Below are positions 1 through 46,501 of a DNA stretch of 64,000 nt, in pieces. Position 1 is the stretch's first letter. Every line of letters starts with the position of its first letter. This stretch comes from Callorhinchus milii (Eukaryota), in NCBI RefSeq assembly GCF_018977255.1, contig NW_024704742.1, positions 46,626,001 to 46,690,000 on the forward strand, read 5' to 3'. Both the position numbers and the translations under genes were made by a program. A model generated the notes under the pieces. It did no database searches. It had not been told where the DNA came from and saw only the letters and a list, made by a program, of their open reading frames with translations.

Positions 1-350
1 GGTTCTCTAAAATAAGGCACTCGATAGACTGGAAGAAAGAGGTTGTGCCAAAACTGAAACATTTACAATAAAATTGAGACTGCACCAGTTACATATAAAA
101 GAGCTTCAGATTATCCACAAACCTACAGGCGTGAGGAAATATTAATGAACAAGTTGCACTAAAACTATTGCCTAGATGTCACGGTCCTGTTAGCTGCAGC
201 AATGTTGCAATGTTCCTCTAAATGTGTCTATTCATCACTGGACCAGATATCTGCTTTCATTCCCATTTAGTGCATGGATAACCTGAAATATGCTCAATAA
301 GGACAGCCACTGCTCCTGCTCATGGTAAAGTGAAAGAGATGTTAGCCTAC

Positions 351-456
351 CTGTAAAGGTGACCAATCAGAGCTGCAAGAGTGACCCTGTTAACACGCGG
401 TAAAGTTTGTATTAACATCCGATACTTTTCCAATCGTTCCTTTTCATCTTGCACAT
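351..456 (-). CDS. ARAP2: ARAP2 exon, RhoGAP (106 nt, phase 1 to 2); not in the ORF track
   Basis: cag|AT ... CAG|gtaggc; (D)[34 protein letters not shown](R). Confidence 0.93.
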
Positions 457-3400
457 CTGTTGACAGACGATTGCACAAGTCATAAAAAGTTCACAAAATG
501 CCATGGCATCAAAAAGACCCAAAACATGCCCTCTACCTCACTGTTCCATTGTTAACAATGCACTGATCTCTTCATCCTACCCATAAAAATTACACACGCC
601 ATTATATGGGAAACATATTTGTTCTACTTTGTAAGATTCTTAATAAGGAACACCACTGAAACTTCCATTGACCTGTAGAACTCCACTTCGGAAGTAAGAT
701 TACACTCTTGTTTACTGGAAAGAGTTTCTATTTACCCATGACTTGCATTCCTTATCTTGTTAAGAAATACCATAACTTAAACCTCACTGTAGAAAAGCGT
801 CCTCTGTCTTATTAGGCAGGTTTATATAATTGTGAATTCTCTCATGGGGTGCCTGCTGAACTTACTTTAATGAGATTGAGCTCTTCATAGAATGGCAAAC
901 CTACTCTCAGTATACTAGGACTAGATTTCCATACATCAAAAAAAATAAAAGTCTCAAGTGGTATAAGCACTTTTTTAAAAAATTCTCTCTTCAGTGAATT
1001 GACGCAACAGTTCCCCGAGTACATGCGAAATACCTTTGCAATCTGGGACTTTGTGATTTATGAACCTCGTTGTGATTTGCGGTGTGAATCTCACATCATG
1101 TAACGTTTCTTAAAATTAGATATTTTAAATTATACCAAGAAACCAGCAAGCATAACACAATACAAGGAAACATAAAGTAGTGAGGACTAGATTCGTTAAA
1201 AGGAATTTTGGAAGTAAAATAATGGAAAGACAATTTGCAGCAAGGAGGGATCAATTTTTCTTTGCTTGCTAGGTTAGCAGTAGTTACCATTTAAGACATC
1301 AAATTAGTCTCTTCGAGTACAAGTGAGGAAAACATATTTAGATATTGAATAGATATTTCCATCAGTTTTTAGAAGGAACAGTTGTTAAATTCAACAGTCA
1401 GATATTTGGGCTCCAGGATTTCTAATATGGATATCATCAGAATCACAATAAATAAATAATAATCCTTGCATTTGATACAGTGCCTTATCACATCTTTTGA
1501 GAATCCTAAAGAAATTCAAACGTTTAAAAGGTCTACTTGGCGAGCCAAAATTCACCCTTAGATTCTTAAAGAAATGCAAGATTATCACTATTATCCGATT
1601 ATTAGCACTATTATCAGTGGAACTATGCTGGACGATTATTCAAGACTGAGATATAGACCAATTAGGCTAACATCTGATAATGGAGAAAATACTTGAGCAC
1701 ATTTTACAAGACCCTTTCAATGCTCTTCTAAAGATCACAGAAGCTATAAAATGCAGTCAACATGGAATCAAGGACCTCAGAAATCTACTGAAACTCTTGA
1801 CGAAGAATCTAATCTAGAGGATGATGGCAATCCATCAGAGGCCACTTGATAAAATTCCACATATGATATTTCTAAAGGTTAAATCTCATGGAACATAATA
1901 CTAGGAGGCCAAAGGTAAATAGAAAAGGCTTCACCTGGGGCAATGACTAGCAGAGATCCATAACGGTCTGTTCCTAGATTCCCTGTTGTTCTCAGTATTC
2001 AATGATGACTTGGATAGAACACTTGCAATATGACAACATTTACTGATAACACCAAACTATGGGGACTGATGAATAATCTAAGTGGGATAAATGGCATGCA
2101 AGATCTGGATAAATTAAGTAGATAAGTGAAGAAATGTCAAATGAAGACTCCATATCAGCAGAAATGTAAAGGGTTTTTGTTGCAACTATTGACTCTTGGG
2201 TTTCTGTCAAGCTGAGGCTGTTGTGAACAAAGCAAAATGCAAAAGTATTTGACTGGAAGTTCAGAGTAAATAATTCTAACATGATATAAATCACTGGCGA
2301 CACTACATTATGAATTTTCTTTTGCAGCTTTGGGCACCTTACCTGAAAAAGAACATTGCAATGTATATTGTAATGGAGCTAAATTATGAAGAGATCATTT
2401 CAGATCTGAACCTGTCCTTATTGAACAATGATTGAAGGAGGGATGAGGAGGGGCACAAAGCACATAACTAAAATGATTCAAATGTTCAAAATAATGTTGT
2501 TGGATATGGACATAGTCAGAGAACTACAACAACAACAACAGAAACTTGGATTTATATAGCGCCCTCCACGCCGGACGGTGTCTCAGAGCGCTTCACAGTA
2601 ACGGATCCCGGGGCCGAGCCAGGGGGATGGGGAGGAACTAGGGGGCCATAGGTTTTAATTTAAAAGTCTAGAGTGGTATAAGGATTAGATTATGTTTTTC
2701 TCCCAGTGGTAGATATAGGGAATAAAATGAAAAGATTTGGTTTGGGCTAATATAAATTATTTATGGGGCAAACCAGAAACTAGCGAAATGATTATTAAAT
2801 GTGAAAAAGTGGGAATTGCGAAGTTACAATGTTTGTGCAGATAAAGTAGGGCATAAATAGTTTGAGATATAGTTTTCAAATCAAAAATTCAGTTGGAGAC
2901 CTCAACAAAAGTATTGCCTAAAGTTTCTGAAGTTTAAATAGGTGAAATTATTTAATGAAAGAATTTAAAGTGACTGTTCCCCCAGCGTTTGAAAGATGGG
3001 ACACTGAAACAGACCCAAGACTAATTCTCTGCACATCGTGTCCACAAAAAATATAGCAGGAGTATGAATCTAGAATTTGTTTTTTTTAAAAGGACATCTG
3101 TAAATGAGTGACTTGGTGTGGGTGTATTACAAGTTCTGAAAATAATGCTCGACTGTAAAGTGTCTTCTTTGAGCTGTAAAAGACTGACTGGAGTTAATGA
3201 GGTGCAGACGGCACAACAGGATTACCAATTCTAACTGGCCAGATAAGAGCTAGTAAACTCTAACATAAAGAGTGACAGACAGATTATGTTATCATTAGGC
3301 AAAGACAGCTGTGCTAGGGGTACAGAAAGCTCAGGTAAAACAAACAAGGAACTTATATATATATAGCGTCTTTTGACAAAATGTCTTAAATTTAATGCCA

Positions 3401-6400
3401 AGTGTAGTTACTCTAGTGTAGGAAACTCTACTCTAAAGATGGCTCACATAATAATAATAATACTTGTATCTGTTGTAGTGCTTTTCACATCTTCGAGACA
3501 TCTCAAAGCGCTTCACAGAATACACTGTGAAGTGAATTGACTGTATACTTGTGGGAGAAACACAGCAACAGTCGTGGATTGAGTGACCAAATTATGACTT
3601 TTTTTTCTTGAGCCATTATTATCAAGCGTGTGGAGTAAGGAAACTTGCCCAAGGTTTCGCCTGCCGGGAATTGAACCCAGGTCTCTCACTTGTGAGGCAG
3701 GTGCTCTAACGACAGAGCTACAGGACTCTACACCACTGAGCTACAGGACTCCACGTTGGGGTGGGGTTGACAAGTCAATGACATCTACTTGCCGTTTCCT
3801 TATTAAGGAATGTCATTAGGAATCACTTCTTATTAAAGCACCAATATCTTCACAGAATATACTGTAAAGTGAATTGACTGTATTTGTGGGTGAAACGCGG
3901 CAGACAATTGCGCACAGCAGTATCCTACAAATAGTCGTGGATTGAGTGACCAAATTATTACTTTTTTTCAGGGATTATTATCCCCGGAAAAGCTGTCCGC
4001 CAATCAACTAACAACCAGATTCCTACTTACTGCTACGTAAACAGTAAGGAAACTTGCCCAACATTTCACCCTGCCAGGAATTGAACCCAGGTCTCTCTTG
4101 TGAGGCGAGTGCTCTAACCACTGAGCTACAGGATTCCACATGAACAAGATTCACAGCATATCAATAACTAGGTATGTTTTAATATTTTAAAGAAGTGGCT
4201 CCATGAACACCTCTTTAAGTGAACATTAAAAATCATAATTTAAACATTCTGGGCAGTTCCATTTTGACCTTCCAAGAACTGTTACTGATATGAGCAAATT
4301 TACACTGCAAGCACTTATACTGGAACACTGCAAATCGACAGATCTCTGAAACCATTCTCTCCTAATGTTTTCTCAGTACCTGTGCTTTAGTGCAGTTCAC
4401 TTTCACATCAGTTCAATCCCCCAAAATGTTCATGGTCAGTTGGCATAAAAAAGCACAGGGATAGATGAACTGGGCACATAAATAGTGAGCAGTGCCGATT
4501 TTCAAAATTTCAACCAGCATTAGAATGACAATGGTCCCTGCATTTCATGTAGTGCCTTTTACATCAGGGGGATGTCTCAAAGCACTTCACTGGATTTACT
4601 ATCAAGTGTAGTGACTGTGTATTTTGTAGGCAAACAACGATCTCTTTACGAAAGTCTTTTTGAAAATAAAATACTCATTAAAACTTTGCATCAAACTAAA
4701 TCATTAGTTGCATTATACAGATAGAAACTATAGACAATAGGCACAGAGCATACAAAGCTATATTACCCAATGCAGACAACCAGTATGGATACAATTCCTT
4801 GGTGAGCAGTGCGTCATCCATTTCAAACAGGAATCGCTTCAGTACATCAGCCACATCGCCGAGCTGATGTTCTCCGGCTCTCAGCTTTACATTTCTGGCA
4901 TCTTTTCTAAACTGATCCAGTAGCTGGCTAACCCGTGATGGTGTGCCATTTTTCCGATACATTCCTTCACAATTGAGGCCTGAAGGATAAAAAGAAATAT
5001 CTAAGCTTCTTAAAAAGTCCACCTCCTCCCCACCCACCCCCACCGCACCCCCCCCACACACACACACCTTGTATCGAACATATACAGTTGAAGACTGAAA
5101 TCTCACACCTAAAATAATGATGCCTTGGATCAGATAGAACAGTGCTTCCAGTAGAAGGAAAAGGATATGAGCACCTTCAGGAGAAGAGGGAACAGTCTTG
5201 AAGGGGTTGGGTTGGGGGGGGGAACACACAATTCGGGCCTAAGCAAAACTGTAAATATTGTTTCAATGTTTGAGAAAACTGAGCAGCAATCCTTTTTGTG
5301 GTGTGGTATGACAAAACTAATAATACTAATAATCCTTGCATTTGATATTGCGCCTTTCATGTTTGAAGGAAATCTCAAAATGCTTCACAGAATTTACTGT
5401 AAAGCGTAGTAACAGTTGTAGGAGCACAAGAGCACAGCCCCTCGAGTCTATTCTGTCATTCTATTAGATCATGGCTGATCTGAACCTCAACTCCATTTAC
5501 CATCCTTTGCCCCATATCTCTTGATACTCTTACCTAAAACAAAATCTATCCAACTCAATCTTGAAAATTTTAATTGATTCAGGATAACAGCCTTTTGGGG
5601 GAGAGAGTTCCAGATTTCCACTACACTACTTTGTGCCGACAAAATAGCGCTTTGAGACGTCTCGAAGACATAATAAGGCGCTATATCAAATGCAACAATT
5701 ATTATTATCATATTATTATTATTATTTTTCCACTACAAGCAAATAATCTATTCTTATTTTTGCTCAGTCACTTTACTGATCAAACAGAGAATAAAACACA
5801 AACCTTTACCACATAGGATTTGTACCCAATGTCAATCATAGTCCACATTACTGCCTGGAAAAAGAATGTTCTTGCAGAAATATCACCAGGCTCAAAAAAC
5901 AGGACTACTCTTTCTGAATGACTGTCTGTTATCCAAATGAAGACCTTTGAAACATTTACTCAATAGACTACATTGTTAGAATAGTTGGTGTGTGATTGTA
6001 CCCAAGACCTTTAACAGAACAAATATAAGCTACAATTTTCTCATTTTAAGGGCTAAAATTATTGGCACTCAAGTTACAGAACTGAACATGAATTTCTAAA
6101 CCATGTGGTTTTGTTTCAATTCTTAAAGTCAGAACTTGGATTTCTATAGCAACTTGTCATGTTGAAATGTCTCAAATGCTTCTGTCAAGTGCAATTGTTG
6201 AAAACAGAATGCAGTGTCCCAATTTGCCAGCAAGGTCACACCAACAGTCTTGAGGTGAATTACCAATGAATCTGAATTGTTGGCCTGGACACTGGGAGAA
6301 TTATTTCAAAGACAGCAGTTTCATGGAATTTTTAACATCCAACTGAAGAGACAAATGAAATTCAGTTTAATATCTCACCCTAAAGACCTGCACCTACAAT

Positions 6401-9400
6401 GTTACAGTACTCAACTCGTGTCCGCCTAAACAATGAGCTCAAGTTCCTAAGTGTAGCTTGAACCCATAACCTTCCAACCCAGAGGCGAGAGTGCTACCTA
6501 CTACACAAAATTGACTGACACAATAGTGAAAGCATTCCACCCTGAAACACAATAAGGATTTGTAAATGGTTTCATTTCCACATAGACTTTGAATATCAAA
6601 GCAAACATCTGTCGAAATCATAAGAGACGTCTGGATGAAGAAGGTCATATCTATCCTAAACTTTCACAATGTTGGACCTGTACACACTTTTACTGCTCCC
6701 TTAGTGTATTTGAAAGTATTGTTCAGATTTACTTTGTCTTACATTTTGTATACTCTTACAACAACAACAACAAGAAGAAGATTCCATTTATAGAGCACCT
6801 TTCACGTCAGGAGGACGTCTCAAAGCGCTGGACAATTGGGTCAGGACCCGAGCAGGGGGGAAATGGTCAGGGTGAGGGGAGGGAGGGAAGGGAGCGAGGA
6901 GGGGGGAAATGGTCAGGGTGAGGGGAGGGAAGGGAGGGAGCGAGCAGGGGGTAGAGAGTTGAGAGGAGAGCTGAAGGCACGGTCAAAGAGAAAGGTCTTG
7001 AGACCGGCCTTGAAGGAGGAAAGGGAGGAGGCGGCGAAAGCACTGGGGGATAGAGCTCCAGAGCCTGGGGGCTGAGAGGTTGAAGGCCCGGCCACTGATG
7101 GGAGGGCGGTTGGGGCGGGGGATGTGGAGCAGACCGGAGCCAGAGGAACGGAGGGTACGGGCAGGTAGATAGGGGGATACTAGGTCGGAGAGTTAGGAGG
7201 GAGCGAGGCTGTGAATGGCCTTGTAGGTGAGGATGAGGATCTTGAATTCGAGATGCTCTGAAGCATAAACGTATGCTCTGAAGAGTCCCTTTCAATTGTT
7301 GTTCCTCAACACTAACCTCATCCTTCTAACACTAGGTATTCACCACCAACCTTCCAAATTGTAAATTGGTCATCCAAATCCTGCTTGTAATGGCAGGATG
7401 GATCGCAATAGTCTGTTGCAGTCCGCTTATTATGAAGACATAAGGGATAGGATTTATATCCCACAAGTAGGTTACTTTAAGTGTTGGTGGATAATGTTTG
7501 AATGACAATTAATCCATTGTTGTGTGGCGTGGGGTAAAAATGTTCATACTTTGAACGTCCACAACAAACAGAATCTGTAACATTTTTGAAGAAGATGAAA
7601 ATACAAACATATTTTAAAAAATCATATTTTAATACAGGTTTCAATACATCTAAAGATTTCTGTTTTTTGAGAATCTAGTTATTTGCATTTTACTCTATCT
7701 TGATTTATTATCCACAACCATAGATTCTACACTTCATGACGACAGATTAACAGTTTTTAATGATGGCTTGCTCAAATGTTCACATTTGTCCTTAATTTAC
7801 ACTCAAAAATGAAACAAAAGAATAAGGGATTCTAGAAGATATAATTTTAAAATTAGATAGATATTGTTATTTACATCAATAGCAATCAGATAAAATAATT
7901 GAAATTAATTATCTAAAGTTATGTAAAATATGCAAATAATACAACAAAACTAAAAGCATTTTGTTATCCTCAATTGTTAGGCAGCCTGACACACAAGAAA
8001 ATCAAATGCTTTTAAATGGGTTGCCTGGAACTCGAAACATACTTCTTGGGTGACTATGATGAGGGTCCCTGGTGAATTGAAGACGGGTAATCACAATTCA
8101 ATTCCCAGTGGCTACAAATTCAAGTGCACAAAATTGCCCATAATTCAGGACTGATTTGACAATCTCACTGAGACAGACTGCAGGAATAGACAGAGTGGAA
8201 AATGGAAATGTCATACAGAGCAAGTAGGACATACTCTTCCATCACTGCAGCTGAAGTACGAGTAGCACAGAAACAGGAGTACTTAAAATGTAGACAAAGG
8301 TAGAAAAAAGGTACAACTCAACATAATTGCCCCTCACCTGGGTAAGTAGACAAGTGCCAAAATGAATAGCTCACTGATTTGCAGCCGAGTAGTTTTAGCG
8401 ACCAGGCTTTAAGTTCTCATTCCATACACCTGGATTTGAACGGCTACCTCATAGGCAATTTCTTGTCCTGACTTTTAAATCCCTCTGTTACCTCGCCCCA
8501 GCCTACCTGCATGACCTCTTCTGTCCTGGTTCCTACTTTCCAATCACTGGCCACTTTCACATCCTCTGCCCACTCCATCGTAGTAATTCCTTCCTCACTC
8601 TCAAACTCCATCCCAGAGTGCCACGGCATTGCTCCATCCCTCCCCACCTTCAAAAGCACCCCTTTGACCAAACCTTTCAGCCACCCCTCTCCACATACAC
8701 TGTTAAGCAGTCAGATTTAGACCTGGTCTAGACATCCCATAACTTAAACAGTTAATGGGGGGTGGGAGACAGACACATTACAATACCAAAATATGTACAT
8801 GCCCTTTCCCACATAAAGAACCTCTTTGACTGATATGGATTGTTATTTATGCCTCTTAGCCTCTTATGGGAAGGCCCAGAATATTCCTATGTCCACTAAA
8901 CATGGCATGAGAAGTAGGTTTAAGCATGGGAGTGGGTCAGGAGAGATAGGAGAAACAAAGAAGTAAAAATATGAGCATATGTATGATAAATATTAGATAT
9001 TTTTTAGTGCTGCAAAAAAGAATAGATATCAAAAGGTTAACCCTAACAATAGCAAATTGAATGTGCTATTTGACATCCCAAGGTGCTGGACAGTCAGGGG
9101 TTTGTAACCAAGCTGGGAGTTGGATCTAAGTGGGTGGGGGGGGCGGGAGAAGATGGCCAAAGGCCAGTCAAATAAACCGGAGATGTGTTTATACTGTATA
9201 TTTATGACCTGGATTTGTACACCCAATGTAAGGTAGTTACATTTACAGACAACACCAAGTTATATAGTCAAATCAGTACAATTCAGATCCCATACTCAAG
9301 TTATATAGTGCTCTGATCAGGCTATACGTGGAACACTGCATGACATTCTGGTTGCTGGACATAAGAGATTGCCCAGAGTCTAGAAGCAGAGGAGAGCCAC

Positions 9401-12400
9401 AGTGATGATCCCCAGTTTTAAGGAAAGAGCTTTGAGCAATGATTAGATAAGCTAAGGCATTTCATTCTTGAAAAGAGAAAACTCAGAAGAGATCCTTATA
9501 GATGTATGTAAGATTTTAAATGCGTTTGAGAAAGTAAACACAGAAAAACAGTGGCTTGCACATTTTCAGATATATCAAGACAGCAGAACAAGAAGATACA
9601 AATTTAGGATTTCAAAGGGCAATTTCAGGATAGAAGTTGTATTTATTTATCCAGAGGGTAATTAACAACTGGAACAGGTTCCCAGGAATGGTGGTGGAGG
9701 TCAGAACAGGGGACTAATTCAAAAAACAGCTCAATGCTGAACAGGAGGATCACAGGGTGGGTGTTCTGGAAGGACGAGATCAAATAGACCAAAGGACATT
9801 CTTGTGATTGGTAAATGACTGAAAATGTTTATTTCAGCATCAAACTGGCTGTTTGGAACAATTAATGAAGTGTAGTTGAAATAATTAGATCTCTTCATTT
9901 AAATCTATGTTTCACAATTTTTCTCAAAAAAAATCAAAGCCAACTATAAAGCATATGGAGAAAATAGCTCTTGGCATTAAAGAAGGAAATAGATATGACT
10001 CACGGTGACATTCTGTAGTTCTAAAATGAGGTTGCTTACCATACTGTGTAACAAATGCTATACAGCTGTCCACAATGATGGGAATGTCATTTTTGCTGAG
10101 CTGCTGGTCTCGCAGTGCATTGCCATCTGTGCCCGCTGCCTTTTTGATGGCCATGTGCCAGACTGTAAAATCCAACTTTGTATGGCCATGCATGTACAAA
10201 GTTCTGCAAGGTTAAAACAAACTTTTAGACCTCGAAGGGTTTCTCTGTTTACAGAGATTCTATAACTTTGGAAGGAACATTATTAGACTGATAACCTATA
10301 GCCAACTGAACTATAAATCAAGAGCACAGTCTTGGAAACTATTCAATGTAGCCGCACCAAATATTTGAAGGAATGGTATGTCTTAGTCTTTTGCTAAAAG
10401 TTAAATTGCTATGACAATATCACCAATCTTTCATCAAGGATGGCATTGAACATCAATGCAACAGATTGGTCTGGCTGACATTACAGCTGCTGCTGAAATA
10501 AACCACATTCCAGACCACTGGTGTGACAGTTCAGATGGAATTTATTTGCACTAAATAAATGCTATGTTGATCATTTCTTTCACAAAATAAATTACATGAC
10601 AATGAACCTCACCTCAACAGGCACTTCACTTACACTTGCAATTCATTCCTCAAGTTTTATAATGTATCTGAACACCTTAGTGAGATTAGTTTTGTGGCAT
10701 CGCTGATAGCCGGTATGCATATATAATACGCGTTATGAAGCTTGTAGGTTTGGGTTTATTCAGTTTTCCCATTTTGTGCTAGTATTGGGTTTAATGATGG
10801 ATGCTGAACTCCAGTGGACTCTGCTGATATCCACAATGAAGGATTAATGGCATGAACTATTTGCTGGAAATTTATGAATAATCGTGAGTATATAGGAAGC
10901 AGAGAATAAAGGACACCTAATAATGACTACATCAGTAGTAATCACATTGAGGATTTCAGACTACGTTAATCTGTTGCATTCATAGTTTTGATGACAGTAC
11001 TGAATAATTAATAATACTATAACACTAACACCAGTGTACGGAAAGCAATCAGATATTAACCAAGGACTGCTTGAACTGCTAGAATAAAATACATGCCCAG
11101 CTGTATTAAATACAACTGTTCAATTGTAATAAAGTATTAAATTAATAAAGTATGTATGCAACTGTATATATTTAATAAAATATATTAATACTATCCCAGA
11201 AAAGGCCTGGACTTTCTGTGATTTCTGACAAACGTACTTAATGCAATATTTCAAAATGTAATTTGGGGCTTCTTAAGACAATGGGCAGTACAGTACTTTC
11301 AACGTTTAGTTTTTTGAATATATAAAAGCTGCAAATGTTTCGAGATCTTCAGTTGTGCCTCAGCAGATGCCATTTTACACTATTGCTGTATATATGTATT
11401 GCTAACTTTGTACATTGCAGAACTTTCAACAAGTCTAGCACCTAGCATACCCAGTAACACTGACATTTGCCAAAAATAAGGATGAATTGAAGAAGATCTC
11501 TACCTTCCTTTTTCTACCAGCAGTAAGACGTCTTTCTTCTCATTGTGTTCAAGCTGCGTGGTGACAGCTGTGAATAGAACAAAAGGAACAAATTGGTCAT
11601 TTTTAAACACATGTCTGAGCAAAGACAAGCCAAAATTCTCTTCAGAGATCAAAAACTTGTCAGAAACATTTCTACTACAATTCACAGGTTTTGAATTTTA
11701 TTACAGATAAAGTATGTACAGCCTTTTCTATTTGCTGCTGTAAGTACAGATCTTTACATATTCAATTAGTATTTAAAAATCGATGCTGAATCCAAAAAGG
11801 AGATGAAGACAAAACTACACAAAACACAAGTTTAATCGTCCAGGTTCTAAAATCCCACAAGGGCCAGATTTCTACAATGCAAAATGTTCACAATTACTTA
11901 AGACATTTTTACTAAAGCAAATTTCAGTAGGAATGTACAATTCTTCAAACACAACCTTCTCAAATTTAGTGGAGGGAAGAACAAGTGTCTGGCAGGAGAA
12001 CTGATGTTAGAATCTAGGACTCGTGAGTTTAAACCACTTTCTTTGTGATTATCTGTCTTTCCAGGAGGAGAAATGTTTGCAGTTATTTAGGCCACTGGTC
12101 TGAATAGGGTACTTCATATTTATTAGATCTTAGTAAAGGAAGGGAAATCTGGCAAGGTTTGAGATGTTTAGAAGAACGTGATAAGGAATTATATTAAATG
12201 CAAGGATGAAAATACAAGGATGCAAGAACAGCACCAAATGGGAGAAGCAACAAGAGGAAAGTAGAAAATCTGTCACCGTTCGGGTTCCTTTCACCATTAG
12301 GACCAAAGTAGTCACATTGAATTCTTAATACCCTTTACTCCTGGCACAGATGATAACATGCTGTCTCTGAGACAGGTTCTGTCTCTGTAGGTTCAAGCTC

Positions 12401-15400
12401 CATGTCATGAATTTGGGAAAATAATCTCGACTGATGCTCCAGGGCAATGTTGGAGGAGCGCCTTATTGTCAGAGGTGCTATCCTTCATATAACATGTTAC
12501 ACAGAAGCCCCTTCCACCTGTTCAAGTGGACTTTAAAGATCACATGACCCTTTTTGAAATCAGAAGGCAATTTCTCTGGGCCAACAATTCCCAAGAAGAT
12601 TGGTCATTCACTTCATGGCTGTTTGGGGGAACTTTACTGTGCACAAATTTTCTGCTGGTCCACCTATAAAATACAGTCACTGATTCTCTACAATAAATCT
12701 TAAGAAGTGCTTTGAGATGTTTCAACAATGTGACAAGGCATTATACCAAACACAAATATTATTACTATTATTTACTATTATTATATAAGCAAACGAGTGA
12801 GTGTAGGATGTTAAAGTCTTACTAAGTTCCTGCAGTCTCTTTAAATACACAGAATCCTCTTCAGCACCATCCTGCTCAGGGCAGAAGCAGAGTTTCGATT
12901 TCTCTAAAGTAAACCAGCCTGCACTCCAGCGTTCCAAATTATGCACATCTTTGTAGTAGAGCCGACCAATCAACTCGTAATCTTTCTTTAACAGGTTTTC
13001 TACCACAGCAGGAATAAAACACTGGAACGCACAGAAGGTCAATCAACAGCAATTTACACCACAGAGGTTTACATTGGTATATCTGGAAAATAAATCTTAA
13101 AACATCAATAAAATGAGGACATGTGTTATATTTAATGGAATGAATTAAACAGGTTTCAATGGTACTTCTTCATTTTCTAATTTGACTGTGTCAGTCTTAC
13201 ACATTTACAAATACAGTAAAGCAATTCTGCAGATATATTAAGCATGACAGACAGCAAGAGAACGTGAATAATTATAGTGATGTTATAATATCCACTAAAA
13301 TTCAACTGCAACCTGCATTGTGCAGAGCTGTGTAACAAAACATCTTTTTGGATTATTGCAACTTTAGACTGTCGATATGTCTTTATGTTAGGCAGACAGT
13401 GGCACAAATGCATTCATTATGGGTCTTTGTGTTTAGAAAAAACTTTTGCATCTGTCTCAACTAGTTAAGATATACAAAACTGAAATCTTTCTACTTATCG
13501 AAACCAACACTGAGGAAACACATACCAATAGTAAATTTTTCATGTGTTAACACAACATAAAATAGAATCTTAATGTTAACTATTAAAGACTTTCAATTTA
13601 TAAAATCAATATTGTAGAGCTGAAATTCAATTTCAAACAACAAATTACACTTGTACAGCACTCGTCACGTCAAAAAGATGTCCTAGGCTGCTGTGACCAT
13701 GCTCTAGTACAGGGATGGGGGAAGTTAAATATAGACTGCAAAAAATCTTGATTAAGTAAAATTGATGGAGGAAAAATATATACAACAACTTAAATAGTGG
13801 CCCTTCCCACAGGGTAGCATCCCGGAATCTATAGACTCTATAAACAGTAAAGTTTACTTATGCCTCCCCACATATAGTAGTGAAGTTTTATATAGAAGAT
13901 AGAAATAAGTTTATTGATTGATGGGTGATTCTAATATCAGAAAATTTACACTCAGCCTATATATATATACACATGAAATAAAATGTTGAGAAACTCCCAT
14001 AATTTTGATGAATAATCTAAGTAATCTAGATTCGGTTCCTCATTTTAGAAAGCTTCATACTTCAATGGAAGCATATTATACAGTAATGATTGATTCATAT
14101 AAAAAAGACATATGGTATCTCTATATTTTTCCTCCATCAATTTTACTTATACAAGATTTTCTTCAGTCTATCCTGATGACATTTAGCTTCCCCCATCTTT
14201 GTACTAGAGCATGGTTCCTTAGTTGTAAGTTGACCTCTGATGAATGTACTAGACTAATCACTTGATAAATAGCTTGTGTCGTGATAAGTCATTCAACAGT
14301 GGGCATGACAACCAATCCAGATTCTTTCCTTAACTAACAGAAGTCTATGGGCATGCTGCTGCCAGTTCTCGGCTCTAGATAGGGATTTGGATTTGGTGTG
14401 GGAACCCTGGCTCCCTTTCCTCTCCTTCATCCAATCACAGGACCTGACCAGCTACTCTGGGAGAGATCAGATAACACAGCACCTAATGGCGTTCACTTCT
14501 ACGTTTGTATCAGTATCTTCCGTTGGGGAAGTTGGCCATGATCAAGCAGTTCATCAGGAATGAAAAAGTCAGAGTAACAAAGTCACTCAGTCAATCTTAA
14601 TTTGATATCACCCAACATAACTCAGGTTGCAGATTCTGTCTTGCCTGGGACTCAAGGATGAAGTCTGTCAATTTTGAAACATTTACTTTTTATGATTATT
14701 ATTACTATTGAAGAATAAAATCCATTTAGAACAGCTGAAATCCGAGAGTTTTATCTCAATGGTTTACGCACAGCATGATGTGCATCGTAATGTCTGTATG
14801 CTTGTGGGTTCAGATAAGGTTAAGGAAAATTTAGCATACTTTAGAAATGTATGTGGCAAACTGTAACTTTGCTACAAAGAGCTGAAAAATCCATTCCACA
14901 TATACCAATGGTAATCAACATGCAAATATAAATTCCCATATCAGTCATCACAAGGCTTCTGCCTCACTTAGCACTGAAATGATGTTCCAAAAGTTGTTTT
15001 CACCTTGCATATTGCCCGTGTCCAGTCTTTTAGAGTTTCAGCACTATCAGTTCCGAAGGAAAAGAGACATTCTGACAGCAAATACATCTCAAATGTATAA
15101 CTAACCCTGAAGCAAATGAAAATAAAAAAGAGCATTAGATCTTTGCAATATGACAGCAGGAGCTACAGTTCAAGTCTTAATGCTTTAAGCTGTATCTTTT
15201 TTTTAAAGTACTTTATACTGAAGCAAAACTCCACCATTGAATGTACATATTGGCTTATCAGATTCCACATTAAATATATTTTTAGGCTGAACCTCTCCAG
15301 AGCAACGAGCTAAGATCACCTAATGTCTGATGTTAAGGACCTATGATACAATTAAAAAGCGAAAGGAATTTCTTCCAATGTTCCAGCTAACAATTCTCCA

Positions 15401-18400
15401 GTTTAATTGATCGTTCATCTCATGGTTGTTAGTGGAAACTTACTGGTGTAAATGGTTAGCCTACAAACTTACTACAATTGAAAGTACCTTAATTAATTGA
15501 CATTTTGGCATGATAAGGCAAAAATCATAAATTGGTCACTTCAATCCATGACTGTTTGTGGGACACTGCTGTGCGCGATTGGTTACCACATATCGCCCAG
15601 AAAATACACAATTAATTCACCTTACAGTATATTCTTTGAAAAGCTTTGAGACACCTTGAAGATGTGATAAGGCACTGCATCAAATGCAAGGATTATTATT
15701 ATGATGCATGCCTTTCTTTTACCATGCAACCCAGTTTAGTCAGCAAACTTCTTCATAAACTGCTCTGTGAATGCTCAGCAATGTCAAGGATGTGTGAGTC
15801 AAGGTAAGTGAGTTGAATTAGTTTTGTTAGACCTGTTTATTGAGATTGAATGCTTCCTTGTCATAAAGATTACTATCTACCAATCCACAGGGGGATGAAC
15901 CTAACACAACCAAGGCAAATGAGCGAACGATCTTGAACTCAAAACCTTCTGATCTCATATCTGATGCTCAACCATTTGAACTATCTATTATGTTTGTTCA
16001 AAGCTTTGAATGGAACACCGCTGTGGTTCTGTGCAGTTATAAAAATTCAGAATTAGAAACTTTAAGCCCACACTTGTGGCATTATGTGATAAAAAATGCC
16101 CACTTTGAAATCTGCAAAGGCCATTGTATGTGCAAAAAATGAATGCAAAGAAATCAACATAATATTCAAGGAGTTAACCCTGCTTGATTAACAATATCAA
16201 TAGTTACACTACATCGCTAACCAAGCTTGAGAAATGCTAATTATACATCTGCTTTGCTAATGTACTTCTCATTTAAAATAACCTTTTCATATTTTCAGTT
16301 ATTTGCTGAAAGATAATGATGACATTAAAAAAAAACTTATCATTGTTTAAACAGCTGTAAAGAACATTTGGTAAATGAGAAAGCCTGTTGGTTATCAGGA
16401 ACTCCAGGTATATTATAATTAGAAGGTGTTCCTCCATAAACACATACAGAAAAAGTTTTCTACTGGTCATCTCTCCTGGACGTCAAACTGATAAGGGAGT
16501 GAAAAAATTCTGAATTTGCTACCTCCATTCACTAGGTTAACTTCAGAGCTGGACTAAATAACCAACTAATTGTTCAGGTATGAATATTTGTGACAAAAAT
16601 GTAATCATTGTGTTGCATTATACTGTTTTGTATAGTACTGCACTCATTGTTTTGCATCATATCCATATTGAACTGCACGCATTGTCTTATATTATAGTGT
16701 CCATATAGTACTGCAGTTCTATATCACACAATATGCATGTGGAATTGCACTCATTATTTTGTACCAAACAGTGTCCATATAGTCCTGCACTCATTGTTCT
16801 GTACTGAAATATTCATGTAATGTTTAGATACAACAAATACAGTTGATGTGGTTCTGATTACTGAAGTACCCTTGAAGCATTTAATGGTTAAAACAGCAGA
16901 ATCTGAATGAGCTGACACTGACGCCAACACATTTCCAATAAAATGCTGAATGCACATTTATTCAGGAACTGTGCTATTTACTATTTGATTAAATGTAAGT
17001 GCATATTCCATCAATGCTTTCAATAATTGATAAGATTATTCGATTGCAAAACTGCTCAAGTTCCCAGCGTTCAGATTTGCCCTTTCCAAGGAGTATTGTA
17101 GATCAAGCAAGATGCTGACTCAACAAGGAATAGAGTCAGTAATGCTGAGCTGCACAATCAGAAGTTCATTATCTTAACATCTTTTGTAAAGCTTAAAGTT
17201 TTTATTAATGCACTTTGTGAAATACAAGAAGAGAAAGAGTAATCCACCATCCTGGGCATTGCAGCTGTATAATGAACACAGAAGTTTCCTGCAAGAATAT
17301 CAAGCCACTCGTTTCCTTCACAAACAAAACATTGCTATTTACCATCATCAGCAGCTCAATGGCACCATTTATATCTCCTGTTAAATCTGGTGTGAAAATC
17401 ACCTCTTGTTTTTATTTGCTTGGTGTGCATGTGAAGTGTGGGGCTTTTGAACTGATTCAATTAAAACAGTGTTTTTATAACTGCAAAATTAATTATGATT
17501 TAAATATAATTAATGTGGAATCACAAATCACTTCCAAAAGTTAAACTATTGGCACTCTAAGCAAAACAAATGACACTATAAAGGAAAGAATTGATCTGGT
17601 GTTACCAGAAGACAAAGCTTGCAACCCAATCCAGTCCTGCTGAGAGCTAGAAAGTTATATAGAGGTCATCGTTCATTTTAATGTGTGTTCAACCCTCATT
17701 ATAAGGACTCCATCACATTTGCAAGGCAAAGGTTTTCAGTGCAGATCAGAGTAGGACATATCTATCTCTGCAACTTGGTGTTGTTCAGTCTAAAACACGA
17801 GAATCCCATTTAAAGGCAGTAGTTCACAAAATTACAAAACCATATAAAGGGGCACGATCAAGAATGGCCACAAGTCAGCCCTCCTGCATGGTGATGTCGC
17901 TGATCACACGACCTGGGACGTCGCTGCATATGTGGCTTCCTGCACTAAAATTCTAGTGCATTAATTGCACTAAAAGGTCACCACCAATTCATATGTTGCA
18001 CATATGCATGGCATCCATGCACAGGAAACTTCCTGTACATATCATGCAGCCACTCTGCCCCCACCATATGGAACTCCGTCCCATTCCCTTCACCTCGCTC
18101 CCCCCCTCGCCTCCTTCAAGGTGAGTCTCAAAAACCTCCCCTTCGACCGAGCCTTCGGCCACCCTCCTACCCTCCCTGACCTCCACCTTCCCTGATCCCG
18201 ACCCCCAGCTCGGGTCCAAATCCCTGACTGTCCAGCGGCTTTGGGACGTCCTCCCGATGTGAAAGGCGCTATACAAATGTGATTTTGTATTGTATGCACA
18301 GCACAAAGTCAATAGGGCAGATCCACAAGGCATATTCCTTATAATCAAATCCACCTTATAGCAGAGTGCTTGTTAAACAGGGATTTACTGCATCCACCTT

Positions 18401-21400
18401 CAAAGTTGTAACTGAACCAATCGGACATGCACAGGAGGATGTAATGGCTTTGCACACTGATGATTCCATGCACACACCACACTTTAAACAGGAGACATTT
18501 CTTGCAACATGTCACAGCCCTTGTATTGAATAATTCAGATGTTTGTACAATTTCAAATATAGCATTATCTAGTAATTTTTTTGTTGGCATTTCAATATGA
18601 TTATTATCCCACTATACTACAAATGTGGGAGTCATACAAGAGTATTATTTTCCACATGAAACAAGTTGTAAGCAGCATGTTTTATACAGTTTCATAATTA
18701 CTGAGGCAAAACCATAAATGACATACCATGACCTCAAGATACAAGGCACACCACAGTCAGAGACTACTGTTTCTGTAGCAGCACGACTGAACAGATAATA
18801 AATAAGGTTTAAACTTTCTTATGAAAAAATAATTCCTCACTGTTATACTCGATGTTATCTGATCATTCTCCTGTCTAAACAGTATTATCTAAAACTTGGG
18901 TTATTAAGTTTTACAAAGAGCATTGCACTGCACTGAACTGCAGGAAGGCAGATTGGCACAGTCTGTTTATTCTCTATCTTTTTGTTTTCCTTTGGTATGT
19001 GAAATGCAATTAGTTCCCCTCCAAATGAGATTTTTTTTCACATTTCAGTTATCTTAAATGTGCTAGTGAAACATGCTGTCCCTATCTAATTAACCCACTT
19101 CTAATAGCTTTGTGTTTTCATCGTAAAACTTAACACTAAAAATTCAGCTTTGCATTGCAGTTTGTGTGCGGTTCATTAGGGGTTGTAACAAAAGACTGTC
19201 TTCATCCACTCCCATTCAAACTGAAAGCAATTTAATGGTCAACTTTCATAACATGTTAGCCTCTGATTTCAGTAAAATCAATAATTTCTATGGCCTGTGC
19301 ATTCTATGTGATATTTTCATTTGTTGCATCAGCCATCATAATGGCCTCTGAATGAGTGTATCAATTTAACGCTCAAATTTGTAGGCAGTTTTGTGCTGCA
19401 GATTTGCATATTTTTTCTTCCATCGCTCCTAATGCTTTTGTTCAAATCTGGTCGTTCTTAAAATTTAGTTACACTTTGAATTTATGTTAATTTAGGAAAT
19501 TACATAATGTGAAAGGGTGGAATATTGACTTTTCACCTTGGGGACAGAGATGAATCCAATCCAGACTGATGGGATTATAAATCTCTGCTCTCTGCCAGCA
19601 GCAAACATCCTAAATGAAATGAATCTGAGCATTCTCAACCCAGTCTCTAGTTCGTTCAAAGCCACAGTACAAAACTGCCCATGAATCACAATAATAGCAT
19701 TTTCACGTGGGAGGTTACAATTTAGAAGGAAATGTCATACTACCCTATGTTTGGTGGGGGAGTGCTCTTCAGAGATTGATACTGAACACAACCTTTATTG
19801 TAAGTACAAATGTGATGCATAGTCACGCCAACATAAATCTAGATGATTTATTTCCCCCACCTTTTGTTTTTTCCAATAACTATAGTTACAGGGCCTTTGT
19901 CAATAATCTACTCAAGAAGCCTTGCATTCATCAAGTTCAAAGTGGCACATTCACAAGAGTGATGCTGTGCAGAACATCTATCCCATAAAATTGGTGTGCT
20001 TATATATGCTCTCTTTGGACTAATTTCTGACTCCCTTTTTTCCCCTCAATCTTCACCAATGTGTTATTGTATACACAATCTGAACCAAGACGTCTGGATA
20101 ATAAAGTATATTGATTGCTGTGTAAAACTCGCCATCACTGAGCCCAAATTCAAATAATTGACATTAAGAATTTCATGTTCAATACCACATCACAATATTT
20201 TGTACAGTGGAGTAAATGATGGTCCCAAAGTAAGTATACAAATAAAGTTTACCCTCAAATGGCAATTATTCCTTCTCTATGGAAACTTAAGGAGCCTTAT
20301 AGAACTAGGGTGCAATTACTGCAGATGCCCTCAGGAAGACTTTGCAATACACTGATAGATACAATCAACTCTCCACTATAACAATGAATACTTGAACTTT
20401 TAACATTACAAAAGGGATTCATGTGCTGAGAAGAAGAGTAGATATACTGGATATCATAGCAATTTATATATTTATGATGCTCCCAAAATTAGACAATACA
20501 CAGACTTAAGATTCTCATCTCCAGTAGCGTCTAGGGTAATAGAACAAATTCTATGAAAGCATTACAAGAATCACACTCTAAATCCACCAAGTTTGGAACT
20601 TTTTGCTTTGGGATCATGAATTTTTTACAACTTTGCAATTTTATACGCACAAGAGAAGCGTGTGTAGATTTTCTTTAATGTAGATCTCTGACAGCTACTA
20701 CATGTCAACATTGCCTCAGAGCATTATGATTGAATTTAGAATGAACAACAATGTTATAATAAAAAGGCTTCACCTTAAATCTACAAAATCCCTTTGCAGA
20801 CATTAAAACTTCCTTGAGTACATTAAAAGAAGCGGCAGCACGGAACACAATTAGCAGCAGTCGGGAATTTTACAACTATAAGCACCCTGGCACTCAAGTT
20901 ACCAGAATATCACTTAAAATTAATTTGCATGATCAGGAATACATTTAAAACATTATAAAAAAAAGTATTTTACATCATCTCAAAGCAAAGATTAAGCCAA
21001 CTGGGGAAAAAAAGAACAGTTGCATCTTCGCTGTTTCACATGGATTAGACACTTCATAAAACTACATGGTCGCTTCACAAGAACACCAGGGATAAGACCA
21101 ACTGGATAAAAAATTATTTTAATAAAATGTCAAGTTCTACCCTCTCTGTGTCATCAGCAAGCAATGTGCTGATTCAACTCCAACCACTAATAACCAGGTC
21201 TCGCTTGCTACATTAAACTGCCAGGTCGCAGAATAATTTGTTCTCTCAGTCATCCAGAACTTGAAGTTCAGGGAATTCCATCTCCAATCCAAACCACACA
21301 CACAAAAGTGATTACAGTTCACAGTACTCACCCAGTACCCCACGTGAGGTCAGGCTTGTTCACTCCTAAGCAGACAACTTCGCTGATATCAATCCTTCCG

Positions 21401-24400
21401 TTGGGAGTGGCCGACTTGTCACTTTCATAATAACTGAGAAATCCACCTTCCAGGGTGCACCATCGTTTATTGAATTCTGCAAACAAAGGAAAGAAGTTTA
21501 GGTTTAGCAAAAAAAACTTCTGTAATCTCTGTGAACAGGCCTCCCATAGTGGAGTCTTATTAATCATTCCAAAAAGCAGCCAGAGGATCCGGAGAATATA
21601 AAACTTGAAAAAGGCGAATGGGTCAGGTCTTTTAAAAAAAAACTGAGAGCACGAGACTTGTAATGATACGGGTTTATTGTTTTTAATTCTGGGCTTTCTT
21701 TTAAAAAGGTTAAGTTCTGCCTATGCAATGAAATCGCATTTGAGCCAGAATCCCGTAATTGCATGCTCGTGGATTTCAGAGAGAAAGAGCTGCTCATAGT
21801 CCAGATACACAGCCATGACACAACTCCAGCATTTTCTTCATGCTACTGCTAATGTCTTAGAATGGAACCTCGCATCATGAAGACAGCAATTCTCAGACAT
21901 ATCAACGTGGTTCATTAGCAAAGGGGCATATAGCCTCTGAAGACAGAATGTAATAATTCTTGGATTTGATACAGCGACTTATCACATCTCGACACGCCTT
22001 GAAGTGCTTCATAGGATACACTGCAGAGTAGCACTTCACAGAATACACAGTAAAGTGATTTGAGTGTATATTTTGCAGCCGAAACGCGGCAGCCAAGTGT
22101 GCACAGCAGTGTCCCACAAACAGTCGTGGATTGAAGTGAACAATTTTTTTTTTGAAGGAATTATTACCCCCGGAAAAGTCATCCACCAATCGACTAACAA
22201 ATGGATTCCTACTTACTGCTAGGTAAATAGAGGCATGTGGAGTAAGGAAATTTGCCCAACATTTTGCCCTGCCGGGATTTGAACCCAGGTCTCTCACTGC
22301 AAGACGAATGGTCTAACCACAGGACTTCACAACCACAATAATGTAGAGCACCTAAAACTTCATTTTAAAGGCTACTAAGAGTGCTTTGAATATACAAATG
22401 TAATCCAGTTCTCCAGTGACATTCCCTTGCTCAGTAATTACAATATACTATTGGACACTAGATTAAGGATACTTGCAAAGGAAATTTCTGATTCGGTCCA
22501 AGTTTGAGCAAATTGCACTTTTTGGCTCAGTTATAGCACTTTTCATTGTTTTGTACCAAAGCTGCTCTTGTGAAGGTGACATAGCCACAAATAACAATGG
22601 GGACACATGCAGGAAAATAATCAAACACAAATAATCCCTTAACCCAGTGGTGGCTATCCTCTTTGGTGGGCCAACAAAATCAATGTTTCTTGATTGAATA
22701 TTGATTTATTGATTTATTGCATGAATCTATGCTATTTGTTATTTCTATGATTATTTTGTTGGCCAACCAATACAGCTTAGCCACTACTGCCTTAACCAAA
22801 TGTTAGCAGTGAAGACAACATCTACTGTATTTGTATCAGCATTCCATTTGCCTTGATCCCATGCCAAAAATTTTTGCATTACATAGAAGATTGTACTGGG
22901 CTTTATTAGTGACTCCTCTACCTTTGGTAAAATGTTCTGTGTATTATATATGACTCAATATCAATATACTTCCAGGTGTGTATAGCTCAATACACTTTTT
23001 TTTGGAAGTAAGATTGAAGGAGGTCAGAGAGATAGGCCCTGTCCCCCTGTGACACCCTTGCTCCTCCATGCCACCATCGGAGGACAAACCCTCAGTCACT
23101 CCTCCCTTAACCTCTGGGACTCCCTGCCTCAAAACCTCTGCTTCGTACTCTCTCTATCCATCTTTAAATCCCACCTTAAAACCTACCTCTTCAACTTCAC
23201 CTATAGTTACCTCCTACTCCTTGTTCCACATCTAACCCTGCTGCTGTGAAATGCTCTGTGTCATCACCTACAAGAAGCGCGTTATGTAAAAGTTTTTGTT
23301 GTTTTCTGTGAATTCCTCACCAAGCTCTAAAATCCATCTTTGAATTAGATTCAAGGCTACCTTAGATTTGATTAAATACAGTGAATCATGAGGCAGTCAC
23401 AAGTTGCACCCTGACTAACCTTAAGATTCAGAAACTATTCAGCAATGCATCAAAATCTTAGCTCTGCATTTAGTTAAACAAAATGCAAGTCTCCAGATCC
23501 TTTTCCGCATTCAATGGCTGTATCAGCAGGAACAATATATGGTTGCATATTCCAGTGAGAGCTTTTACTATTAATACCTATGATGAAACTGATGGAAATT
23601 TTAATGTAACTTAATACCAAATTAATATGTCCAACTGCTAAGATGTGAAACACACAACTGTAACTCAGATGCTCAAAGCATCAGAAAATATTTCAAGTTC
23701 GTAACAGTTTGATTGCAGAATCTATTGCTGACTTTACAGCACATAATAGCAAAAGGTCTTGGTCTTTCTTCACACATAGTGGAAATAACAGCTGAGACAG
23801 AATCAATCTATTCTCTACTACATGGTGGCATTACAGTGCCAACTTAATGTCACAGCATAGAACAAAAACAATCAAAACCTCTCATAAATGTTGATGTTAC
23901 CATAAAAGGTCACAAAGGTCACAGTTGGCGAAATTACATTCCATGTCAAGAGAAAGAACAAGTCAACATGGCCTTAGATCACAAAACTGGACAAGTTGTG
24001 TTATCTAAAAACTGCAAAAAGCATGTTAGTCCATGGTACAATTTCCTGGATCTATTGTGACAAAATGTTTCCATGGGCTGTTCCTCCCTTGAACAATCTT
24101 AGCAGAAAATATCAGAGGGCAGAAATCACAACAGGCCACAAATCTAATCTTCTAATCCCTGCTGGATAGGTCAAATCCCGTATCCTTCAAATACCATAAA
24201 TCAGACAAATGAACAGGAAAAGCTCAATATATGGGACACTGGGAAAATGCATCACCCACTATGATAGTGGGCCATACAAACCAAGAAGCATAGACAGCTA
24301 TACACAACTGGAAGCATAACATGTTTTGCAGACATATAGAACATTTGACCCAGGAGTTAGAACAGGGGAGTCGCTTTTAAGAAACGTCTACTGTATTCAA

Positions 24401-46341: not shown

Positions 46342-46501
46342 CTTTGATGGCGAGAGAGAGATGGGAGAACATAGAAACAAAAAAAACACAAATAAATATC
46401 AATTTTTTTTTTCTACAGCAACAATGACACACAGATCTACAGAAGTCAATAATTGATCAGGATTCTCTGAAAGCTGTGATCAGTACCTATCAGTTCCACT
46501 A

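Follow-up and report, generated by a model that had tools for sequence, protein, structure and literature searches.

The 64,000-nucleotide stretch of the Callorhinchus milii assembly GCF_018977255.1 analyzed here (contig NW_024704742.1, positions 46,626,001 to 46,690,000; hereafter the window, in whose coordinates positions are given) carries part of the gene for ARAP2 on its minus strand. ARAP2 has both an ArfGAP and a RhoGAP domain, named after the GTPase-activating proteins (GAPs). Searches of the window with the protein P0004, whose residue numbering is used throughout, identified segments that encode a PH domain, the ArfGAP domain, ANK, a second PH domain, and the first 3 RhoGAP exons (tblastn; Table 1). 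The order of the Pfam domains in P0004, which is SAM (residues 9 to 64), PH, ArfGap (695 to 808), RhoGAP (1136 to 1282), and RA (1335 to 1411), is that of the ARAP architecture. Our subject is a single codon in the RhoGAP part of the gene, which places an Arg at the arginine-finger position, where most other ARAP2 proteins have Gln, and the question is whether this Arg was retained from the origin of ARAP2 or regained.

The arginine-finger codon in the window

The exon that contains the codon is preceded by an acceptor AG at 4981-4980 and followed by a donor GT at 4766-4765. Across the acceptor, the minus strand reads ...cag/GC CTC AAT TGT GAA GGA ATG TAT CGG AAA AAT GGC..., where the slash marks the exon limit and CGG corresponds to 4956-4954. 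The leading G of the first Gly codon is supplied by the upstream exon, which ends with ...TAT G/gtaagc at position 10040. Translation of 4980-4768 on the minus strand yielded a stop-free peptide of 71 amino acids, which matched the Pfam RhoGAP profile PF00620 with an E-value of 1.8e-14 over profile positions 15 to 83 of 148.

A preliminary description of this sequence had reported an Arg codon at 4956-4954 and had placed it at the arginine-finger position, and both statements hold. Residues 1122 to 1323 of P0004 aligned without gaps to the crystallised RhoGAP domain of human ARAP3 (PDB 5jd0_A; E-value 2.2e-64), with the Arg on the Arg of the motif egvyrkgg. In the family alignment described below, all 29 of the 29 ARAP rows outside ARAP2 have Arg in the column of this residue. 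We take the finger residue of ARAP3 to be the one named Arg942 and the corresponding residue of human ARAP2 to be Gln, which is also the residue seen in the mammalian rows of our alignment. It is likewise correct from the codon, as was pointed out in the same description, that CGG and CAG (Gln) are separated by a single CpG transition.

The Arg at the finger of ARAP2 is real, and it is both fixed and expressed. A DNA contig from run X1 (448 nucleotides, 4609-5017) showed 0 differences and had the same CGG, and a contig from run X6, which belongs to another study, covered 4767-4980 with 0 differences and also reads CGG. The X6 contig, which we guess to be derived from RNA, stops exactly at the exon limits and runs 401 nucleotides past the donor side, and is thus spliced. 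Furthermore, contigs from run X18, which carries a different label and represents a different organism (organism B, as distinct from organism A), covered 4757-5016 with 7 differences in the exon, none of them at 4954-4956. According to a codon count made by hand, 6 of these differences between organisms A and B are synonymous and 1 replaces Ala35 with Pro. Run X19 (organism C) contributed no contig to this comparison.

Since CGG is identical in independent DNA, in an RNA-like contig, and in organism B, the Arg reflects neither a sequencing error nor RNA editing; the former candidate was ruled out by the matching contigs of X1, X6, and X18. An artefact in a wider sense, be it an error in assembly or base-calling, the mis-assignment of a paralogue, or the sampling of a rare allele, has nothing in its favour among our observations. 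It would have to explain why the same codon appears in an independent DNA run, in a different organism, and in an RNA-like contig from a separate study, and why both the tree and a topology test back the orthology to ARAP2 (see below), and we consider it extremely improbable. Contigs drop rare variants, and a low-frequency polymorphism at the codon is compatible with the agreement among them.

Table 1. ARAP2 features in the window, with residues in P0004 numbering
Feature	Position	Strand	Basis
RhoGAP arginine-finger codon CGG (Arg1158 of ARAP2)	4954..4956	minus	sequence and alignment
RhoGAP exon, residues 1150-1220, ends YPYWLSAL	4767..4979	minus	100% to P0004; PF00620
LKRFLF codons; Lys is the p50RhoGAP Lys319 equivalent (kept), the Arg323 equivalent is Phe	4825..4842	minus	
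Upstream RhoGAP exon, residues ~1095-1150, ends ...VTQY + G	10040..10203	minus	tblastn
Next RhoGAP exon, residues 1221-1256	350..457 (limits approximate)	minus	tblastn
ArfGAP exon with zinc finger CADC-x16-CKKC	33736..33942	minus	PF01412 (E 6.3e-34, residues 695-808)
ArfGAP catalytic Arg (QHR), exon after the zinc-finger exon	~31900-31989	minus	
ARAP2 gene portion, residues ~527-1256	350..46344	minus	15 tblastn segments

The ArfGAP motif CxxC-x16-CxxC-x4-R, which had been described as intact, was found as CADC-x16-CKKC-AGQH-R, spread across the zinc-finger exon and the next exon. P0004 reads ...CKKCAGQHRSLG here, and the catalytic Arg is in the second exon.

A tRNA-Val (CAC)-like sequence was identified with ARAGORN at 4067-4134 on the minus strand, in the intron ~630 bp downstream of the finger exon, and a tRNA gene, a pseudogene, and the head of a tRNA-derived short interspersed nuclear element are all possible. 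The segment 4600-4641, at which the contig depth was ~100,000 in the runs of both organism A and organism B and at which there were many loose ends, is a high-copy interspersed repeat present in both organisms. A (GT)n and G-rich low-complexity run covers 5018-5074, 40 to 95 bp upstream of the finger-exon acceptor, and the contigs of every run break there.

Orthology and the finger residue across ARAP2

A protein search with the exon peptide gave 245 matches among 289 candidates, the best 120 of which were listed and used for all residue counts over 120 ARAP2 proteins. The peptide was 100% identical to 3 C. milii entries that carry the name ARAP2 (NCBI and UniRef names), and among the best 120 of the 245 matches its identity was 82% to 89% to the ARAP2 proteins of 11 shark and ray genera and 65% to 80% to those of bony vertebrates. 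The Callorhinchus gene and protein are already public under the correct name. A second named holocephalan ARAP2 protein was not found, as there was no database match between 100% and 89% identity among the matches listed, and a near-length protein search for other holocephalan ARAP2 proteins returned 12 matches, all with at most 71% identity, which leaves organism B, represented by contigs, as the only relative.

For the phylogeny, a sturgeon ARAP2 query was searched against 1.84 billion representative proteins, and 30 named ARAP2 proteins were aligned together with 35 representatives. In the tree inferred with the LG+G4 model from these 65 rows and 869 columns, with the finger column excluded, the ARAP2 proteins formed a clade of 36 rows with a support of 99 in the Shimodaira-Hasegawa-like approximate likelihood ratio test (SH-aLRT). 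Within this clade, Callorhinchus was the sister of 10 elasmobranchs with a support of 100, and the bony vertebrates constituted the other half with a support of 99. The ARAP2 clade was in turn the sister of 2 proteins named ARAP3 (support 100), and the named ARAP1 proteins and a lamprey protein were placed outside. A tree in which Callorhinchus was forced to group with ARAP3 had a log-likelihood 85.9 units lower and was rejected by the approximately unbiased (AU) test (p-AU = 0.00027), so the gene identity given in the preliminary description withstood the tree check.

Moreover, the Callorhinchus genome contains a separate ARAP3 gene on contig C13, the finger exon of which is 78% to 83% identical to named ARAP3 proteins and 56% identical to the protein encoded in the window. 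This ARAP3 gene (C13:17655731-17666398; loci L001, L002, L004, and L008) is fully canonical, with EGIYRKNG, LKRFFRE, and NLSLLFAPSLF. The candidate that the window gene is a mis-assigned ARAP3 or ARAP1 was ruled out by its placement in the ARAP2 clade, by the AU test, and by the separate ARAP3 on C13. The identification from the sequences is therefore solid: in the elephant shark, which is a holocephalan, this gene is the true orthologue of ARAP2.

The finger residue of ARAP2 varies. Among the best 120 matches, Gln predominates with 85 proteins, followed by Leu with 23; Arg occurs in 4, Ser in 3, Val in 2, and Lys, Phe, and His in 1 each. A residue other than Arg, present in 116 of these proteins, thus characterises most ARAP2 members but does not define orthology, and the 4 with Arg consist of 3 Callorhinchus isoforms and 1 protein from Stegostoma. 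The latter is the exception among the elasmobranchs, in which 10 of the 11 genera have Gln (Carcharodon, Heterodontus, Pristiophorus, Mobula, Hypanus, Pristis, Mustelus, Rhinoraja, Scyliorhinus, and Hemiscyllium). Gln was also present in all of the ray-finned fishes sampled (bichirs, sturgeon, paddlefish, and teleosts), in Latimeria, and in mammals, the platypus included. The lungfish has Lys, the caecilian and the frog have Leu, salamanders have Val, turtles have Leu, Ser, or Phe, and birds have Leu, with His in a single partial protein whose species was not read. Outside ARAP2, the ARAP1, ARAP3, lamprey, and invertebrate ARAP proteins of the family alignment all have Arg, and Arg is also the residue in both of the lamprey and hagfish ARAP proteins P0137 and P0135. 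Within ARAP2, the finger site is thus labile: parsimony requires a minimum of 9 changes in the 36 rows, and 2 lineages have Arg. With Gln in mammals and Leu in birds, turtles, caecilians, and frogs, the tetrapods present either repeated changes from Gln to Leu or a mammalian reversion from Leu to Gln.

Because Gln is found in sharks and rays, ray-finned fishes, the coelacanth, and mammals, the loss of the finger predates the bony vertebrates, and the ancestor of this group was, as reconstructed from these residues, already without the finger Arg. The preliminary description had treated the loss as one of mammalian ARAP2. Mammals do have Gln, but so do elasmobranchs, ray-finned fishes, and the coelacanth, and to speak of a mammalian loss is therefore misleading. 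The related suggestion that the switch from GAP to effector should be moved to a later time in evolution does not agree with a Gln that was already present in the bony-vertebrate ancestor. In the open-access literature, we found nothing in print about the finger residue of Callorhinchus or elephant-shark ARAP2, and the sole co-mention of ARAP2 with Callorhinchus was irrelevant, since the paper names ARAP2 only as a gene next to human transposon fossils.

The RhoGAP domain beyond the finger

We presume that CNTD1 is an old name of ARAP2. In a passage of a review on Rho regulation, CNTD1 is presented as a RhoGAP-like protein that is devoid of the finger and of RhoGAP activity and that acts as a GAP for Arf6 (PMC8305018). 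In another paper, ARAP2 is described as binding RhoA-GTP and as having a RhoGAP domain without catalytic activity (PMC6358971), and the earlier statement that ARAP2 with Gln is inactive as a RhoGAP and binds RhoA-GTP is consistent with that paper and with the Gln in the mammalian rows. Mammalian ARAP2 (centaurin-delta-1), an Arf6 GAP with an inactive RhoGAP domain that binds RhoA-GTP, is the orthologue of Callorhinchus ARAP2. The 2 proteins share the SAM, PH, ArfGAP, PH, RhoGAP, and RA order, the loss of the Arg323 equivalent, and the replacement of the Gly-Pro of the Asn391 helix, whereas they differ at the finger, which is Gln in mammals and Arg in Callorhinchus.

Positions of the RhoGAP domain are referred to here by their p50RhoGAP numbers. 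Callorhinchus ARAP2 has Arg at the finger (Arg282/Arg85), as do 29 of the 29 ARAP1, ARAP3, and outgroup rows, and Lys at position 319, as do 28 of the 29. At position 323 it has Phe (Arg in 29 of 29), which agrees with the earlier reading of LKRFLF in place of LKxFLR and was read from the codons. The exon with the equivalents of Asn391, Val394, and Pro398 is located ~7.4 kb beyond the window (C1:46618438-46618602 of the organism's own genome) and reads NQMSTQSLSQVLSSYLFQ. It encodes Ser at position 391 (Asn in 27 of 29), Gln at position 394 (L, I, A, S, or T in the other rows, with neither Val nor Gln among them), and Ser at position 398 (Pro in 29 of 29).

Similar losses were observed throughout ARAP2. 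Asn391 is kept in 12 and Pro398 in 11 of the 36 ARAP2 rows in the tree, Arg323 is kept in none of them, and Arg was likewise found at position 323 in 0 of the best 120 matches. Since no ARAP2 row has Arg there, the loss of Arg323 dates to the ARAP2 stem, whereas the alignment indicates that the Asn391 and Pro398 equivalents decayed piecemeal. The Asn391 equivalent, for example, is Ser in Callorhinchus and in all 11 chondrichthyan rows, and also in the platypus, but Asn in Mus, Ochotona, and Molossus. Save for one residue, the RhoGAP domain of Callorhinchus looks like that of every other ARAP2 pseudo-GAP. The Arg alone is no sign of activity, because the second basic residue and 3 further binding determinants are missing. 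These missing determinants are direct results, as are the residue, its position, the orthology, and the distribution of states; that the domain is probably inactive is what we infer from them.

The RhoGAP domain of ARAP3, an active RhoA GAP (5jd0, and 5jcp as a fusion with RhoA), is 52% identical to that of Callorhinchus ARAP2 over the 202 residues of the ungapped alignment, and the 2 share the Arg, but ARAP3 keeps LKRFFR and NLxLLFAP where Callorhinchus ARAP2 has LKRFLF and SLSQVLSS. In the RhoGAP-like (BH) domain of p85 alpha and beta, the finger Arg is kept and the equivalents of Arg323, Asn391, Val394, and Pro398 are missing, as in Callorhinchus ARAP2, and passages of 2 papers report that p85 has no GAP activity (PMC8305018, PMC2386819), one of them noting that no such activity is detectable and naming these residues among the determinants that are lacking (PMC8305018). 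However, within the RhoGAP family p85 is on an unrelated branch, and it is said to lack the conserved surroundings of the finger, whereas Callorhinchus ARAP2 keeps EGxYRKxG. The RhoGAP-like domains of OCRL1 and INPP5B, which differ from Callorhinchus ARAP2 in family and architecture, are pseudo-GAPs as well: they bind GTPases of the Rho family but do not bring about hydrolysis. The finger of OCRL is Gln instead of Arg (PMC11139668), as in most ARAP2 proteins and in contrast to the Arg of Callorhinchus.

There are also points that speak against an inactive domain. The p50RhoGAP numbers were transferred to the ARAP columns by motif spacing (Lys319+4; Asn391, +3, and +7) rather than by direct alignment. 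Furthermore, mammalian ARAP2 binds RhoA-GTP without Arg323 and Pro398, and by analogy some catalysis could result where a GTPase is bound and a finger is in place. On balance, we consider it improbable from the sequence that Callorhinchus ARAP2 has an active RhoGAP domain, or that the finger gives it some residual catalysis.

The gene that is annotated as ARAP1 in the same genome (C15:17533337-17540055; locus L024, C15:17538300-17540400; P0162 and P0306) has Leu at the finger, within the motif EGIYLGSG, and keeps LKKYFRE and ...VFGP. Its protein fell within the ARAP1 clade, where it had a very long branch (1.07) and was paired with an ARAP1-like protein of Latimeria; this pairing may be a long-branch artefact or represent a fourth paralogue. 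An orthologue search with this divergent protein returned only itself. P0139, an ARAP1-like protein from an elasmobranch, is canonical and has a short branch. As a query in the Callorhinchus genome, it gave high-identity matches (66% to 80%) only for its residues 32 to 132, on the small contig C514:35323-38226 (L012 to L014), and no canonical ARAP1 exons for the ArfGAP or RhoGAP domain were found in the Callorhinchus assembly.

These paralogues bear on the possibility that holocephalan ARAP2 is a working dual GAP, active as both ArfGAP and RhoGAP, whether this capacity was retained or regained. The presence of the finger Arg and of the Lys319 equivalent, the intact ArfGAP motif, and the purifying selection on the exon between organisms A and B (6 synonymous changes to 1 replacement) are all in line with such a protein, and the Leu at the finger of the ARAP1-annotated gene would allow for roles having shifted among the paralogues. 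However, the equivalents of Arg323, Asn391, Val394, and Pro398 are F, S, Q, and S, the example of p85 illustrates that a finger can be accompanied by no detectable GAP activity, as stated in a passage of the review (PMC8305018), and a canonical ARAP3 is present in the same genome. In addition, the Callorhinchus domain is otherwise indistinct from those of the Gln-bearing shark ARAP2 proteins, with high identity both in the finger exon (82% to 89% identity) and over the 869 columns (up to 83%). We thus regard a dual GAP as having only a small chance of being right. It is equally doubtful that the holocephalan ARAP proteins have reshuffled their roles, such that ARAP2 would have a usable finger and some RhoGAP activity, either regained or inherited from the ARAP that preceded the duplication, and the ARAP1-annotated gene would have lost its finger.

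Retention or regain of the finger Arg

The direction of change at the finger we infer from parsimony counts and from arithmetic done by hand on the branch lengths of the tree. The ARAP2 stem starts from Arg, because ARAP1, ARAP3, and the lamprey and invertebrate ARAP proteins have Arg. An early loss on the stem followed by a change from Gln to Arg in the holocephalans requires 2 changes, which would fall on branches with lengths of 0.21 and 0.12, whereas retention would place 2 losses on branches of 0.04 and 0.073. This rough comparison gives a ratio of 8.6 in favour of an early loss and a reversal under equal rates. The branch lengths would therefore favour this order of events unless the change from Arg to Gln is ~9 times faster than the change from Gln to Arg.

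That Gln can revert to Arg follows from Stegostoma, which is nested among sharks with Gln and is the sister of Hemiscyllium (Q) in the tree. Its finger motif is GLGCEGIYRKGGT, whereas a second species of the same 90% cluster, with 95% identity, has ERIYQKGG (P0011/P0287 versus P0289/P0285 and P0016). As placed in the tree, the Stegostoma residue is an independent and recent reversal. For the Callorhinchus lineage, we lean towards a reversal as well, and hold retention to be possible but the less probable of the 2 on the sequences at hand.

Several observations weigh against a reversal in Callorhinchus. Under parsimony, retention in the holocephalans combined with a change from Arg to Gln in the elasmobranch stem and another in the bony-vertebrate stem also requires 2 changes, which gives a tie. 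The change from Arg to Gln is a CpG transition when it starts from CGG or CGA, and the change from Gln to Arg is not; a CpG bias of 5- to 10-fold would offset the 8.6-fold advantage largely or entirely. The same replacement of Arg by Gln at a RhoGAP finger arose independently in OCRL (PMC11139668). Parallel losses clearly occurred many times within ARAP2 at the Asn391 and Pro398 equivalents, with 13 and 8 minimal changes among the 36 rows, and a parallel loss of the finger is therefore not far-fetched. Finally, organism B, which is ~3% divergent from Callorhinchus in the exon, has the same Arg codon, so the Arg is not a recent private change.

All of these observations, the tie being reached once the outgroup is counted and Gln being the favoured CpG outcome of CGG or CGA, also support a more specific account, in which the Arg would be a relic. 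The gnathostome ancestor of ARAP2 would then have had the finger Arg with Arg323 already gone, Gln would have arisen by the same CpG transition twice, in the elasmobranch stem and in the bony-vertebrate stem, and the slow-evolving holocephalans would have kept the Arg in a domain that today is poorly active or inactive. Against this stand the short branches on which both losses would fall and the opposite change in Stegostoma. Moreover, a hypermutable CpG codon would have to survive while the lineage accumulated ~0.43 substitutions per site, and for this the Arg would need to have been under selection although the domain was already without Arg323. We consider this account rather unlikely.

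The best overall explanation, to which we would assign about an even chance, is a degenerate ARAP2 pseudo-GAP with a finger Arg that arose secondarily. The ARAP2 stem would have acquired Gln at the finger before the jawed vertebrates diverged, and a single A to G transition (CAG to CGG) in the holocephalan lineage would have restored Arg. The RhoGAP domain would be the usual degenerate, GAP-like module of ARAP2, which most likely binds Rho-GTP rather than hydrolysing it, and efficient catalysis is unlikely to have been restored, given that 4 other residues with which active RhoGAPs bind and position the GTPase have been lost. The preliminary description had proposed that an ancestral ARAP2 with both GAP activities may persist in this lineage, and in that form the proposal is not supported by these results: parsimony is tied, the branch lengths favour a reversal, and 4 determinants read F, S, Q, and S.

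On present evidence, the date of the switch from GAP to effector on the lineage to mammals is not moved. If the Arg is ancestral, elasmobranchs and bony vertebrates would each have made the switch on their own, both through the same CpG transition. The finding amounts to a minor variation on a known pseudo-GAP, and would gain greater weight if an assay showed activity or if a codon-level analysis pointed to retention. ARAP2 offers a textbook example of how an enzyme domain can become an effector or binding module, and the timing and reversibility of the finger loss bear on how pseudo-enzymes evolve. The finger position of ARAP2 is evolutionarily labile, and the remaining catalytic surface has decayed piecemeal, and the domains of Callorhinchus and Stegostoma may serve as a cheap natural experiment on whether the finger alone limits activity.

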